The notes beneath the pieces were generated by a model, which ran no database searches, was not told where the DNA came from, and worked only from the letters and a program-made list of their open reading frames with translations. Positions 635 to 28,055 of a stretch of DNA of 31,472 bases are shown here, piece after piece. Each line of letters opens with the position of its first letter. Position 1 is the stretch's first letter. The DNA comes from a virus (taxonomy: Duplodnaviria; Caudoviricetes), in the IMG/VR virus record IMGVR_UViG_3300037424_001374, positions 1 through 31,472 of that record; one strand, given 5' to 3'. A program made the position numbers and the translations under genes.

Positions 635-873
635 TAATTGACCAAGAGGTGATTGTAACACCAAATATAAAAGAAGAAGAGCGCTTGAAGTATGCCAAGA
701 AGGCAATAGCTGAGTGTCTGATGAAGAAGATAATGGAATCTGATTTATTGGATATACAGGTGAGCGAAAAATCAGATGGAAGCTTTGGATATTATGCTGG
801 TTTCATAGCTTATACACAGGAGGAACACAACAGAATAGCAAGCGCTCTTAAAAGACATAAAATAAAAGTTTAA
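631..873 (+). CDS. Hypothetical protein
   Basis: 80-aa ORF with ATGA overlap to the upstream stop. Confidence 0.75.
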   Translation: MIIDQEVIVTPNIKEEERLKYAKKAIAECLMKKIMESDLLDIQVSEKSDGSFGYYAGFIAYTQEEHNRIASALKRHKIKV

Positions 874-880
874 AAAATTG

Positions 881-908
881 TTTGGTATTTAAAAAAAAGC
901 TATATTTG
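881..908 (+). promoter_or_regulatory. Candidate promoter with Bacteroidota-type -7 element (TTTG...TATATTTG)
   Basis: TATATTTG at 901-908 matches TAnnTTTG; TTTGG at 881-885 with a shorter than canonical spacer; lies before ORF 932. Confidence 0.45.
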
Positions 909-931
909 TATAAATAAAAAATGAGCTAAAT

Positions 932-1204
932 ATGGAATTCGTTAGAGTATATCAAGGCAAGGTTAACTCAGTTCGGCAAGAGTATATCTCTCCAACTGGA
1001 ATGAGACACTATGAAATAACATTTCGTGATGGGAAGAAGATGACCTACCATCGCAGTCAAAAGCAAGTGATGTTAATTGTGCCTGGAAATGTCATTCGTT
1101 TCACGGCCAACAAAGTTGAACCATTTGACTACTGGGTTATCAATGAAGTTCTGGAGAGTTTCAATCCAGAAGTGAGAATTGTGGTTCACCACATTGTTTT
1201 TTGA
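932..1204 (+). CDS. Hypothetical small beta-rich protein (possible OB-fold)
   Basis: 90 aa with alternating beta-strand pattern (YQGKVNSV, HYEITF, GNVIRFTA). Confidence 0.7.
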   Translation: MEFVRVYQGKVNSVRQEYISPTGMRHYEITFRDGKKMTYHRSQKQVMLIVPGNVIRFTANKVEPFDYWVINEVLESFNPEVRIVVHHIVF

Positions 1205-2143: not shown

Positions 2144-2164
2144 TTGTTATTTGATTACAAAATA

Positions 2165-2202
2165 AAAAGAGCTGGACATTATATCCAGCTCTTTTCTTTT
2201 TT
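2165..2202. terminator. Bidirectional intrinsic terminator between the convergent genome arms
   Basis: AAAAAGAGCTGGA-cattata-TCCAGCTCTTTTCTTTTTT hairpin with T/A tracts on both sides. Confidence 0.85.
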
Positions 2203-2228
2203 CATCGGTACCATTACCTTCCTGGTAA

Positions 2229-2258
2229 TTAAGCAGCCATTAGTTGTTTGTCATTTGT
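2229..2258 (-). other. SsrA-tag-like reading frame TNDKQLMAA*
   Basis: ACA AAT GAC AAA CAA CTA ATG GCT GCT TAA starting at the discriminator base of the tRNA-like domain; resembles ANDENYALAA. Confidence 0.6.
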
Positions 2259-2319
2259 GGAGCTGGAGGTTACGAACCCTCTTCCGTACCTGATGCACGT
2301 CTAAACGATTATCAGCCCC
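2258..2319 (-). ncRNA. Minimal tmRNA-like RNA (tRNA-like domain only)
   Basis: GGGGCUG/CAGCUCC-A acceptor with G3-U70; 13-nt stemless D-loop AUAAUCGUUUAGA; 5-bp CGUGC/GUACG helix; GAA linker; GAGG-GUUCGUAA-CCUC T-arm; CCA not encoded (CAA). Confidence 0.82.
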
Positions 2320-2386
2320 TTGTTTTTTTCCAAGATTCCCAGATAATTACCAGGACAATCACGCTCACAGCAATAAATACATCCAT
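2312..2386 (-). CDS. 24-aa single-pass membrane peptide MDVFIAVSVIVLVIIWESWKKTRG
   Basis: Hand translation; ATG 2 nt after the stop of ORF 2389-2616; hydrophobic helix with basic tail. Confidence 0.6.
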   Translation of the reverse strand: MDVFIAVSVIVLVIIWESWKKTRG

Positions 2387-2388
2387 AT

Positions 2389-2616
2389 TTATTTTTCTGA
2401 TGGTTCATCAGGTACATCTCCACAAGAACCTATTTGTGTGCTCTCTATCTTATCCTTTATCCTCGATTTAATAGCACGCAATTGTGATACGGTCATCCCA
2501 TCCATTTCTTCTTTTATGTCATCACAGGAATCTTTAAACACTTGCCACTGACCATTAAGGTTTATTCGAAATAATTCCTCAAGTTCTGACTTTACTCTAT
2601 CTATTTCTTGTTTCAT
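2389..2616 (-). CDS. Hypothetical protein
   Basis: 75-aa helical ORF tightly packed in the late operon. Confidence 0.7.
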   Translation of the reverse strand: MKQEIDRVKSELEELFRINLNGQWQVFKDSCDDIKEEMDGMTVSQLRAIKSRIKDKIESTQIGSCGDVPDEPSEK

Positions 2617-2619
2617 AAC

Positions 2620-2907
2620 TTACTTTTTTAAAGCTTCAATCTTTGCCTCAATGCTAACTCGCATTAAGTCGATTTCTTTTAACAAAAGCTCGTTTTTAAC
2701 TTTATCTTGCTCAACCATCTTCTCCATAAATGCCATAACTTTCATCAATGCTGTTAGATTTTCTTTCTCAACATCACGAAGCTCTACGTTCAACCTCTCA
2801 ATCTCTGCTTCCTTTTTCTTCTCACGTCCAAGAAAATAGATAACTGCAGCAACGAGCACAGAAAATGCAATACCATATTGCGCTATGTTCATCAATAACT
2901 CTTCCAT
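2620..2907 (-). CDS. Holin-like membrane protein (N-terminal TM helix plus coiled coil)
   Basis: IAQYGIAFSVLVAAVIYFL followed by a charged coiled coil; BhlA-like architecture. Confidence 0.6.
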   Translation of the reverse strand: MEELLMNIAQYGIAFSVLVAAVIYFLGREKKKEAEIERLNVELRDVEKENLTALMKVMAFMEKMVEQDKVKNELLLKEIDLMRVSIEAKIEALKK

Positions 2908-2912
2908 ATCTA

Positions 2913-3476
2913 TTATTTATCTGGGTCATCATAAACTCTCAATCCATCAATAGAGGAGTTGCCTACGTTCTTTGGAATATAAATTCCAGAAAAGTATGAC
3001 TTGCTGGATTTTGCAAGATTCTCCTTTGCATCTGGAGTCATATATGTTGGGAACAAGTTTGAGTAATCACAAAGGTATTTTGTTAGTCTCTTTGTATAGA
3101 ACTCTGCCATATCTCTTACACTGCTTCTAAGGTACTTTATGTCATCAAGTGAAGATGCTTGAGAGAATTCAGAATTCTCCTGTGAGACAGCCTTATTTGT
3201 AAGCTTATAATTAATATGCGGAAGTGCTTCATATAAAGTCCACTCACAAACCATTGGTTGAATGTAGTCTCTTATTAAAGATTCCTCATCAGAGTTTGTT
3301 GTTCCAGATGCAATACCATTTTTAAGTGTGTTATAAAATGTGGTTCCAAGAATCTGTTGCAAATGTGTGTCTTGTGCTTTATATATAAAAGGAACAAGAA
3401 TGTTATCATCAACGTTGTCTTGTATGGTTGTATTCTCCTTGAGATATGTTGTCGAAATGAACTTTACTTTTGCCAT
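2913..3476 (-). CDS. Putative head-tail adaptor (head completion) protein
   Basis: 187-aa helical protein directly downstream of the portal; call rests on position and family resemblance. Confidence 0.55.
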   Translation of the reverse strand: MAKVKFISTTYLKENTTIQDNVDDNILVPFIYKAQDTHLQQILGTTFYNTLKNGIASGTTNSDEESLIRDYIQPMVCEWTLYEALPHINYKLTNKAVSQENSEFSQASSLDDIKYLRSSVRDMAEFYTKRLTKYLCDYSNLFPTYMTPDAKENLAKSSKSYFSGIYIPKNVGNSSIDGLRVYDDPDK

Positions 3477-25239: not shown

Positions 25240-25794
25240 TTATTTTATTTTGTATTGGTTTTTGGTTAGCTCTTCAGACATCTTTTTCTTGAAATCCTTT
25301 ATTGTTTTGAATACAACACAGTGGTCGATTCCATATAGTTTCTCTATTGCTCTAAATGTCATATTTTCATCATAATATAACCTGACCATCTCAGACTCAA
25401 ACCAGGTCATCTTAACATTCTCTCTGGCTAAGTATATAAATTGCATCATATCTTCTTTTATTTTTTTATCACCTATTGTTGAGACATCTTCTATTTCCAC
25501 CATATCAAGATTAAAATCATATGTCCCAAACTTATCTGATATTCTTTGCCTAACATTCAGATGGAATGGGCTGGATTTTGAATGTATCTGATTCTTTACT
25601 GCAGATATGAATAGATATTTGAACCAGCCTTCCTCATATGATTTAACAACCTTCTTTTTGTTTTTGTGAAATGATATTGCCAGCTCAGAAATAAGTTCGT
25701 TCTTTAGTTCGAGGTTTGGATAGAGCATATTATCCATTATCTCAGAATAAATGTTGCCAGGTTGTGCTATTTCAGATAATATTTTATTAATCAT
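25240..25794 (-). CDS. Sigma-70 region-4-like HTH protein (possible divergent ECF-like sigma)
   Basis: MTWFESEMVRLYYDENMTFRAIEKLYGIDHCVVFKTIK; N-terminal helical region with weak region-2 resemblance. Confidence 0.6.
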   Translation of the reverse strand: MINKILSEIAQPGNIYSEIMDNMLYPNLELKNELISELAISFHKNKKKVVKSYEEGWFKYLFISAVKNQIHSKSSPFHLNVRQRISDKFGTYDFNLDMVEIEDVSTIGDKKIKEDMMQFIYLARENVKMTWFESEMVRLYYDENMTFRAIEKLYGIDHCVVFKTIKDFKKKMSEELTKNQYKIK

Positions 25795-26977: not shown

Positions 26978-27655
26978 TCAGAGAAATCTCGAAAAATAAT
27001 TCATTAATTCCTTATTATTTCTTATAAGATTCATTGTTCGTCTATTGCTTGCTCGAACTGCTTCGCCCGTCATTCCATATATCCTGGCCACCTCTACATC
27101 TGTTTTGACCTCTTGGTCAAGGAGTCCCCATCTGCAAATAAAGATGTCCCAAGCTCTTTGCTTTACTTTTGGTAATTGAGAGTAAACAAGTTCAAGGTCC
27201 AACTCATCCATCTCAAGCTGAATTTCATCAGCAATCTCGATGACCTCACCATCTTCATTCTCCTGGCATAAATCGACATAAGTGGCATAATGGTATTCTC
27301 CGTCAATTTTCGTTCTTCTAATGATATGTGTGTATCTCCTGAGGTATGAAATTATTGCATTAATTATGTTAACGTAGCAGAACAGAGCAAAATCCCTGGT
27401 TGGTTGGTTATACTTGGCAATTGAGTTGGCAATTGCTTCATTTCCAACTTGAATCAGTTCAAATAGGAGGTCATCTGTGCATTCATTCATCCTTACTTTT
27501 TTGTTTATAGCTTTCACAATTAGCCTTTGGCAGGATTCCGCAAGTTTATCTTTTTCTTTTTTTTGAATGGCGAGGGAGTTTGCCTCTTCTCTTGGAAGCG
27601 GGTCATATCTCTTTGCAGATAAAGAATCTCGATATTGGCTAAATGTTTGGTTCAT
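26978..27655 (-). CDS. Sigma-70 family RNA polymerase sigma factor (start moved to ATG 27655)
   Basis: Region 2 ELIQVGNEAIANSIAKYN..FALFCYVNIINAI; region 4 RWGL..KTDVEVARIYGMTGEAVR. Confidence 0.85.
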   Translation of the reverse strand: MNQTFSQYRDSLSAKRYDPLPREEANSLAIQKKEKDKLAESCQRLIVKAINKKVRMNECTDDLLFELIQVGNEAIANSIAKYNQPTRDFALFCYVNIINAIISYLRRYTHIIRRTKIDGEYHYATYVDLCQENEDGEVIEIADEIQLEMDELDLELVYSQLPKVKQRAWDIFICRWGLLDQEVKTDVEVARIYGMTGEAVRASNRRTMNLIRNNKELMNYFSRFL

Positions 27656-27661
27656 CTCTTG

Positions 27662-27684
27662 CTCTCTTTTTAATAAATAGGCAA
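27662..27684 (-). promoter_or_regulatory. 23-bp element TTGCCTATTTATTAAAAAGAGAG (promoter-like), inverted copy of 29277-29299
   Basis: Exact reverse complement of 29277-29299; lies just before the sigma ATG. Confidence 0.7.
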
Positions 27685-27689
27685 AAAAA

Positions 27690-28055
27690 TTAAGAACCAA
27701 GTTCATTAACAAGTTTTTTGAATAGTTCCAGGTGTATATCTTCGAACTCATTGATTGGCCTTCGAAGAAAAAACATCACACTTATAACAAGTTTATTTAT
27801 GAAGGTTGCCTCAATTGCCCTGGATGTTGGTTCGTTGAATGATATGATTGGAGTTGCTGATGGGTCTGCAAGTGGATAATCAAGATAAAACTCATTTAGA
27901 GCTGTTTTAAGCAACTTTTTCTTTTCTTCTACCTCTGAGGTTGACTGGAAGTTAAATCGCAGCGTAGTATCAAGATAAATGCTTCTGGAGGGAAATGAGA
28001 TAACTCCAACTTCTGTTGAACCGAATCTCTTGCGTAATTGTTTTCTTCCTGCCAT
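27690..28055 (-). CDS. Hypothetical protein
   Basis: 121 aa; first gene of the minus-strand arm. Confidence 0.7.
   Translation of the reverse strand: MAGRKQLRKRFGSTEVGVISFPSRSIYLDTTLRFNFQSTSEVEEKKKLLKTALNEFYLDYPLADPSATPIISFNEPTSRAIEATFINKLVISVMFFLRRPINEFEDIHLELFKKLVNELGS

Follow-up and report, generated by a model that had tools for sequence, protein, structure and literature searches.

The stretch of DNA that we analysed, here called the window, is a complete 31-kb virus record (31,472 nucleotides) whose minus strand encodes portal, terminase and tail proteins. The terminase has its closest matches in Flavobacterium phage 11b (40%) and in Cellulophaga, Bacteroides and Polaribacter phages, and the host is likely to belong to the Bacteroidota. 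(Two other minus-strand ORFs in the window, at 26978-27751 and 25240-25794, have sigma-factor-like PHROG matches with E values of 3.6e-10 and 1.3e-4.) At the 3' end of the late operon lies what we take to be a rearranged phage tmRNA gene. A complete tRNA-like domain (TLD) stands first, and after it come an SsrA-type tag frame, a predicted hairpin and a terminator-like hairpin. Upstream, on the same strand, are syntenic genes in common with relatives (2389..3476). These encode a 187-aa DUF6712 protein (2913-3476), a 95-aa holin-like protein (2620-2907) that has no match in Pfam and that we infer to be a holin, and a 75-aa ORF (2389-2616). The start of the 75-aa ORF is like that of a 70-aa ORF in the related locus L343 and its last 14 residues are like the end of the L343 67-aa ORF, which suggests that it may be a fusion and that an endolysin gene between the two parts has been deleted in the window phage. 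A 24-aa hydrophobic ORF (2312..2386, minus strand) follows, the stop codon of which (2314-2312) falls inside the TLD.

The one-piece TLD (2255..2319, minus strand) is supported by its fold and by the Rfam model RF00023, which scores 28 bits (E 8.9e-8) where the gathering score is 47, and which aligns at both of its ends with its interior deleted. ARAGORN, when run on the window, did not report the TLD. The domain has a 7-bp acceptor stem with a G3-U70 pair and a discriminator A at 2258, and a D-loop end that reads GAC just before helix 2; there is no D-stem and no anticodon arm, helix 2 is 5 bp in length, and the T-arm is shortened. For comparison we used a host set of tmRNAs, drawn from genomes of the phylum to which a Bacteroidaceae genome belongs; of 101 genomes, 97 gave a match, and 90 of the 91 loci fetched were parsed. 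The CCA position of the window TLD reads CAA (2257-2255); because ACAA is the most frequent gene-encoded 3' end among the host tmRNAs (24/89), the missing gene-encoded CCA is normal. The window TLD is without the T-loop A58 found in 90/90 hosts and without the D-loop GG found in 88/90. Both are retained in the TLDs of three relatives (L343, L396 and L527, described below) and, given these losses, the window copy may be a weaker member of the group.

Starting at the discriminator A, the sequence of the minus strand reads directly as T-N-D-K-Q-L-M-A-A-stop (2229..2258). This is what a preliminary description of the locus had reported, and we confirmed both of its further observations, namely that the frame is closed upstream by a TAG (2303-2301) and that it has no ATG ahead of the final M-A-A. 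The frame ends in hydrophobic-Ala-Ala-stop with no start codon required. The likely tag frame proper is D-K-Q-L-M-A-A-stop (2229..2252, minus strand), which would open with the resume codon GAC (2252-2250) and close with TAA (2231-2229); before it stands CAAAT (2253..2257), which is like the frame-setting motif at positions -5 to -1 of tmRNA and which overlaps the CCA position. A predicted hairpin (2207..2238, minus strand) takes in the last tag codons and the stop and is placed like tmRNA helix 5. Beyond it, at the boundary between the late operon and the convergent gene, is an intrinsic-terminator-like hairpin (2164..2196); in the scoring of such hairpins, done on both strands, 2 were found where 0.3 were expected. 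The whole module comes to ~155 bases, compared with 350-400 for a standard Bacteroidota tmRNA. That a Logan contig spanning 1700-3500 is identical to the window argues against an assembly join as the source of the layout, though the contig may have the same origin and is no independent sample. When every position that starts with A was examined on either strand of the window (20,543 in all), only five opened a 6-16-codon AA-stop frame, and all five share the same stop; the chance of an in-frame [LMV]AA-stop after ACAAAY in random sequence is 6e-5 to 2.5e-4. (Note that 8 bases of the acceptor 3' strand, at 2260-2267, are repeated on the minus strand in the 3' arm of the terminator, at 2169-2176. 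The idea of a second acceptor 3' strand at the terminator was dropped, as the repeat was equalled by 20/500 shuffles and is unseen in relatives.) Between the window TLD and the terminator there is no second 5' acceptor half.

Relatives with the same layout were sought through the 187-aa neighbour protein, for which 38 of the 120 listed homologues were aligned and the best 80 of 96 related viral loci were taken. A structure scan of these 80 loci, run without a tag term, found a sole TLD, that of L343, which is followed in the same frame as the window tag by TNNNESMAMAA-stop. A covariance model built from the window and 39 tag-less TLD-like sequences (out of 41, with L208 and L269 excluded) confirmed the L343 TLD at 57.7 bits and detected no TLD beyond it in the 80 loci, in which ARAGORN reported three tRNAs and zero tmRNAs. 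Of the 80, 53 have at least 1.5 kb downstream, and the module is present in one of those 53; it is sporadic among relatives. A pattern requiring AA-stop gave 13 matches, the two TLDs among them being L343 again and L396, whose TLD is followed by TNNKQPMAMAA-stop. Although L396 was first met with this tag-requiring pattern, it was recovered by two patterns that have no tag term. A scan of metagenomes, again with 13 matches, returned the L343 and L396 elements (counted once) and added L527, in which the TLD is followed by TNDTY-stop (TLD and short frame, 815-881, minus strand), so that the junction is kept and the AA end is lost. This D-T-Y-stop could have arisen by decay, or it could be a tag that releases ribosomes but leaves the protein unmarked. 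By its neighbouring proteins, L527 is the relative nearest to the window. The four loci are syntenic, with a DUF6712 protein, a holin-like ORF and a ~70-aa ORF, and then an M15 peptidase in L343 or an amidase in L396.

The tagged examples number three only (window, L343 and L396). No TLD was among the four matches of a pattern scan of GTDB genomes; in the last viral scan, with 94 matches, the only tagged TLDs were L343 and L396 again; GenBank phages contained nothing that matched beyond short terminator or chance pieces; and a pattern of GGTTCG plus AA-stop, which is unable to match L343 or L396, gave 73 viral matches and no tagged TLD. Two of the three close relatives retain the in-frame tag; the preliminary description would have been contradicted by relatives that had no AA-stop frame downstream of the domain. 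Its claim that the frame is of the SsrA type is supported. We also considered whether translation might read through in frame from the upstream gene into the tag. In L396 a 34-codon frame (923-1027, minus strand), with an ATG that overlaps the first base of the TLD, does run through the whole domain into the tag; no such frame exists in the window, L343 or L527. Read-through was rejected, since the frames of the upstream genes differ and an ATG frame is open through the TLD in L396 only.

The preliminary description placed the start of the tag at the discriminator itself. According to PMC3929946, the resume codon is determined by positions -6 to +1, the TLD and base -5 are bridged by a single SmpB, and the frame does not depend on how far away PK1 lies; PMC2481249 states that A86 sets the frame four bases downstream, and PMC8363625 that Tyr55 of SmpB stacks on A86. 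In every one of the host tmRNAs (90/90), position -4 is A, position -1 is a pyrimidine and the resume codon starts with G. Scored against 89 host tmRNAs (median 7.4 bits, minimum 0.9), the best register in the window is CAAAT followed by GAC, at 6.5 bits; the register starting at ACA scores -18.8 bits, and its five upstream bases are paired in the acceptor stem. The start at the discriminator is thus not upheld, and the resemblance to an 'xND' tag is probably that of a frame-setting motif joined to a common A/C-rich trailer. We infer that the A at 2256 is the equivalent of A86 and consider (Ala)-DKQLMAA the likely tag. The same description cautioned that 3' maturation would cut into the first codon. 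A cut at that place is still envisaged, but its consequence is reversed, as a cut right after the discriminator would leave exactly positions -5 to -1 on the 3' piece, with the motif whole and the tag (Ala)-DKQLMAA behind it. In L527 the top register is CAAAC followed by GAC (4.7 bits). An A at -4 with a pyrimidine at both -5 and -1, followed by a resume codon that starts with G, is thus seen in only two of the four loci, the window and L527; L343 and L396 would instead resume at AAC, a register that scores -1.9 bits in L343 and is outside the top four in L396. Note that the junction motif is partly generic, in that YARNY occurs in 11/88 host trailers and 2/41 tag-less TLDs, and YARNYG in 4/88 and 0/41, respectively. 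(The first 16 trailer bases of L631, a standard phage tmRNA, are those of L396.) Host tags end in MAA in 40 and LAA in 47 of 90 cases, and in MAMAA in none.

The tag is identical to that of the window at 24/30 bases in L343 and 26/30 in L396, and the TLD at 37/61 and 39/61, respectively. The 60 bases after the stop are at shuffle level when compared to the window (142/200 shuffles reach the score for L343 and 47/200 for L396), four-fold sites in three adjacent genes agree with the window at 15/34 and 8/18, and the neighbouring proteins are 30-55% identical across lineages. There is one silent difference in the last four codons (12 bases) of the tag, although the partner strand of the hairpin in the window differs and is weak, and the longest invariant run in the four-way alignment extends from the acceptor 3' strand to the resume codon. 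The tag has changed less than the TLD, an indication that selection acts on the tag. Because the 6-base difference in tag length sits between direct repeats, the fact that this difference is in frame is weak evidence. L343 and L396 are identical to each other at 38/60 bases after the stop, a value that 0/200 shuffles reach, and both have an extended helix round the stop; comparison of the post-stop sequence with host and phage tmRNA pseudoknots gave no match and no score above shuffles. When a host tag-region profile (30 regions) was applied to 137 trailers, the three tagged elements came out on top, at 8.8, 6.6 and 5.7 bits, with the next at 0.8. Among 92 distinct TLD-like bodies collected automatically without a tag term (and uncurated), an in-frame [LMV]AA-stop is found only in L343 and L396, and an AA-stop in the discriminator frame in these two and L489 (3/92), where TNKKAAA ends, judged by eye, inside a palindromic hairpin. 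(One more of the 92, L203, has a TLD of the tag-less type followed by LLPNMIIAA-stop in frame +1, possibly by chance.)

In each of the four phages the upstream gene has its stop codon inside the TLD or on the first TLD base, in differing frames and in at least three different genes (window 2312-2386; L343 4601-4678; L396 1017-1616; L527 854-1057). As a baseline, an upstream stop lies within 30 of 89 TLD-like elements (L343 and L396 included) and 7 of 31 tRNAs. At the same place as the window 24-aa ORF, L343 has a similar one with 6 identical residues. With the stop inside the TLD, a cut at G1 would leave the upstream mRNA non-stop, and in L396 this would be the endolysin mRNA. Given this baseline, the arrangement is no more than suggestive of a non-stop upstream mRNA arising from 5' maturation of the TLD.

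Aminoacylation requires a free 3' CCA. The RNA would therefore be unchargeable while the tag is attached, and the tag could be used only via a separate molecule. As the best explanation of the locus, held with somewhat less than even confidence, we propose that the precursor is cut at the discriminator and that the freed 3' piece is a separate message working with the alanine-charged TLD. The RNA would be made as the 3' end of the late (lysis-region) transcript; host RNase P would cut at 2319 and a 3' endonuclease after 2258, whereupon CCA would be added. The Ala-charged TLD, together with host SmpB, would then take over the chain of the stalled ribosome, and PMC2481249 describes a TLD that alone supports alanine transfer or takes part in peptidyl transfer. 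In the least supported step, this SmpB would also hold the freed piece, which would start at the CAAAU motif, and the ribosome would read it from GAC onwards and append (Ala)-DKQLMAA; the stop of the displaced tag would free the ribosome, leaving a tagged protein marked for Clp-type proteases. Against this two-RNA mechanism stand the AAC resume codon of L343 and L396, the loss of the AA end in L527, the eroded D- and T-loops of the window and the fact that no tether joins the pieces: in a nested pairing model for base-paired tethers, 168, 69, 189 and 195 of 200 shuffles bind equally well. (Pairing of the helix-2 loop with the 3' piece, with 9 possible pairs by eye in the window and 7 in L343, was rejected as a tether, since it is at shuffle level and unseen in L396.) Moreover, C74 is given as the main inhibitor of RNase Z in PMC3161902, so the 3' piece may be lost to trimming during maturation; a counterpoint is that hosts mature their own ACAA-ended tmRNAs.

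It is possible, though doubtful, that the TLD is the sole working product, as in phage DS6A, either sequestering SmpB or adding alanine without a tag, and that the tag is a decaying left-over of a permuted ancestor. The relatives can be ordered as an erosion series, from ~100 structured post-stop bases in L343 and L396 through one hairpin in the window to three codons in L527, and the want of a tether fits as well; in addition, 89/92 TLD-like bodies have no AA-stop in frame, and after the DS6A acceptor end there is no tag-like frame in any of three frames. In the permuted viral gene L604 the trailer is ACAAAC and the tag ends in MAMAA, as in L343 and L396, so the junction could have arisen by loss of the DNA between two copies of CAAAY. 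However, the L604 trailer was selected by the search pattern, and the L604 post-stop sequence shows no detectable likeness to those of L343 and L396. Moreover, a discarded trailer should have been erased, whereas the tag is better conserved than both the TLD and the flanks. We consider it unlikely that the tag region is instead kept as RNA, whether as an uncut or slowly cut precursor that would bind SmpB or ribosomal proteins and so, unable to be charged, act as a decoy of host tmRNA, or as a trailer that sets the rate of maturation. The conserved bases do coincide with those that touch SmpB (-5 to -1) and with helix 5, which contacts the SmpB tail (PMC8363625); TLD-like RNA inhibits tmRNA, chargeable or not (PMC4131195, citing Mao et al. 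2009); and the eroded D- and T-loops of the window could slow processing. Yet M-A-A-stop is kept with a silent change while its partner strand in the window is different and weak, which fits a constraint on the peptide better, and base -5 in an uncut precursor would, from tRNA geometry, lie at the tip of the acceptor, a long way from where SmpB binds.

We regard as highly improbable a resume codon ACA at the discriminator, with a tag TNDKQLMAA of the AND type fused to the acceptor end. The resulting tags would have 9-11 residues with N-D or N-N at positions 2-3, like the host tags ANDYSYAMAA and ANNNYALAA, and this register may well describe the ancestry of the junction; as a working register it has against it the score of -18.8 bits, the pairing of -5 to -1 in the acceptor stem, and the need for the discriminator to remain on the charged RNA. 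Just as improbable, in our judgment, is a conserved minigene (MAA or MAMAA) read from its own ATG, which might for example drain a tRNA or peptidyl-tRNA hydrolase. All three tags do have the ATG after an A-rich unstructured stretch, but MAA is just the usual host tag end (40/90), and the invariant junction and L527 would be left unexplained. As for a nine-codon chance match, the match is short and A/C-rich trailers readily yield T-N-D or T-N-N; nevertheless, in-frame recurrence in two relatives that can be recovered without a tag term, at ~1e-4 per trial, leads us to count this explanation as refuted.

The TLD-then-tag layout is real and conserved in a small group of Bacteroidota-type phages and is apparently undescribed. 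In PMC11915505, 97,179 genes fall into five forms (standard, permuted, intron and two that lack a coding region), and a whole TLD followed by a tag is in none of them as set out in its main text, the 9 'standard, no CDS' entries being compared by class only. The preliminary description was to that extent right in placing a complete domain followed by a tag outside the known forms. No published report of the layout was found in the literature searched, most subscription papers being outside it. A tag-less phage TLD has already been published, that of DS6A; the downstream tag is absent from it. We tentatively suggest, as something doubtful, that the locus represents a new form of tmRNA in which a whole TLD and a free unpaired message come from one transcript and meet only on SmpB. 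If true, there would be trans-translation without a pseudoknot ring and without any base-paired link, and the same cut would make the lysis-region mRNA upstream a non-stop substrate, possibly acting as a timer. In the tmRNA forms described with a tag, a covalent bond or base pairing ties the message to the charged domain, and the displaced tag makes it testable whether such a link is needed or whether SmpB alone brings the message to the A site. A small phage could in this way reroute ribosome rescue and protein decay with ~155 bases, below detection by ARAGORN and the Rfam cut-off. The layout also suggests a possible ancestry for the many tag-less phage TLD RNAs and would, even as a relic, bridge permuted and tag-less tmRNA genes as an intermediate form. 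(Viral contigs commonly carry tag-less TLD-only RNAs, with at least 92 distinct TLD-like bodies in scans of 20 to 45 of 64 collection parts; they occur in short, ~60-base, and longer, ~78-base, forms, such as L003, L045, L200, L406 and L446.)

Several known systems resemble the window module in part. Mycobacterium phage DS6A has a TLD-only tmRNA that is likewise phage-borne, one-piece and of the alanine type, with a short loop on helix 2, and the window TLD falls within the 60-85 bases of that type. PMC11915505 and PMC4131195, citing Mao et al. 2009, describe the DS6A RNA as inhibiting host tmRNA. It has no tag frame, as is true of most other phage TLD-only RNAs, whereas in the window a conserved tag, a hairpin and a terminator follow the TLD. 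The Jakoba libera mitochondrial tmRNA gene, which PMC3590771 describes as re-permuted and tag-less, also has a contiguous TLD thought to be permuted-derived (PMC3590771 and PMC11915505); it differs in being an organelle RNA with no tag frame. Standard Bacteroidota tmRNA (RF00023) shares with the window the acceptor identity, the ACAA 3' end, the A at -4 and pyrimidine at -1, the MAA-stop end and a stop in or beside a hairpin. It carries its tag and pseudoknots between the TLD halves, where the window has a 5-base loop closing helix 2; the window tag is outside the TLD, there is no pseudoknot ring, and the tag is without the Tyr or Phe of the hosts. In permuted two-piece tmRNA (RF04321, RF01849-RF01851; L604) the acceptor 3' end also comes before the tag and the transcript must be cut, and the L604 tag ends in MAMAA like those of L343 and L396. 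Five such genes are on viral contigs (L604, at 1130-1424, L638, L644, L124 and L208), three of them selected by a trailer-requiring pattern; tags in the group include GAQVEMAMAA and ANSENYALAA, and L644 has a spacer of more than 200 bases. A trailer-to-tag deletion in an L604-like gene, with the 5' half supplied upstream, might have given rise to the window layout, a proposal that is a lead only. Permuted genes run from 3' acceptor half through spacer and 5' half to tag; the CCA end is separated from the tag by the 5' acceptor strand, the D-loop and PK1, and the TLD is split over two base-paired pieces. In the window, by contrast, the 5' half comes before the 3' half, and the TLD is whole, has no predicted pairing link to the tag and directly abuts the frame-setting motif.
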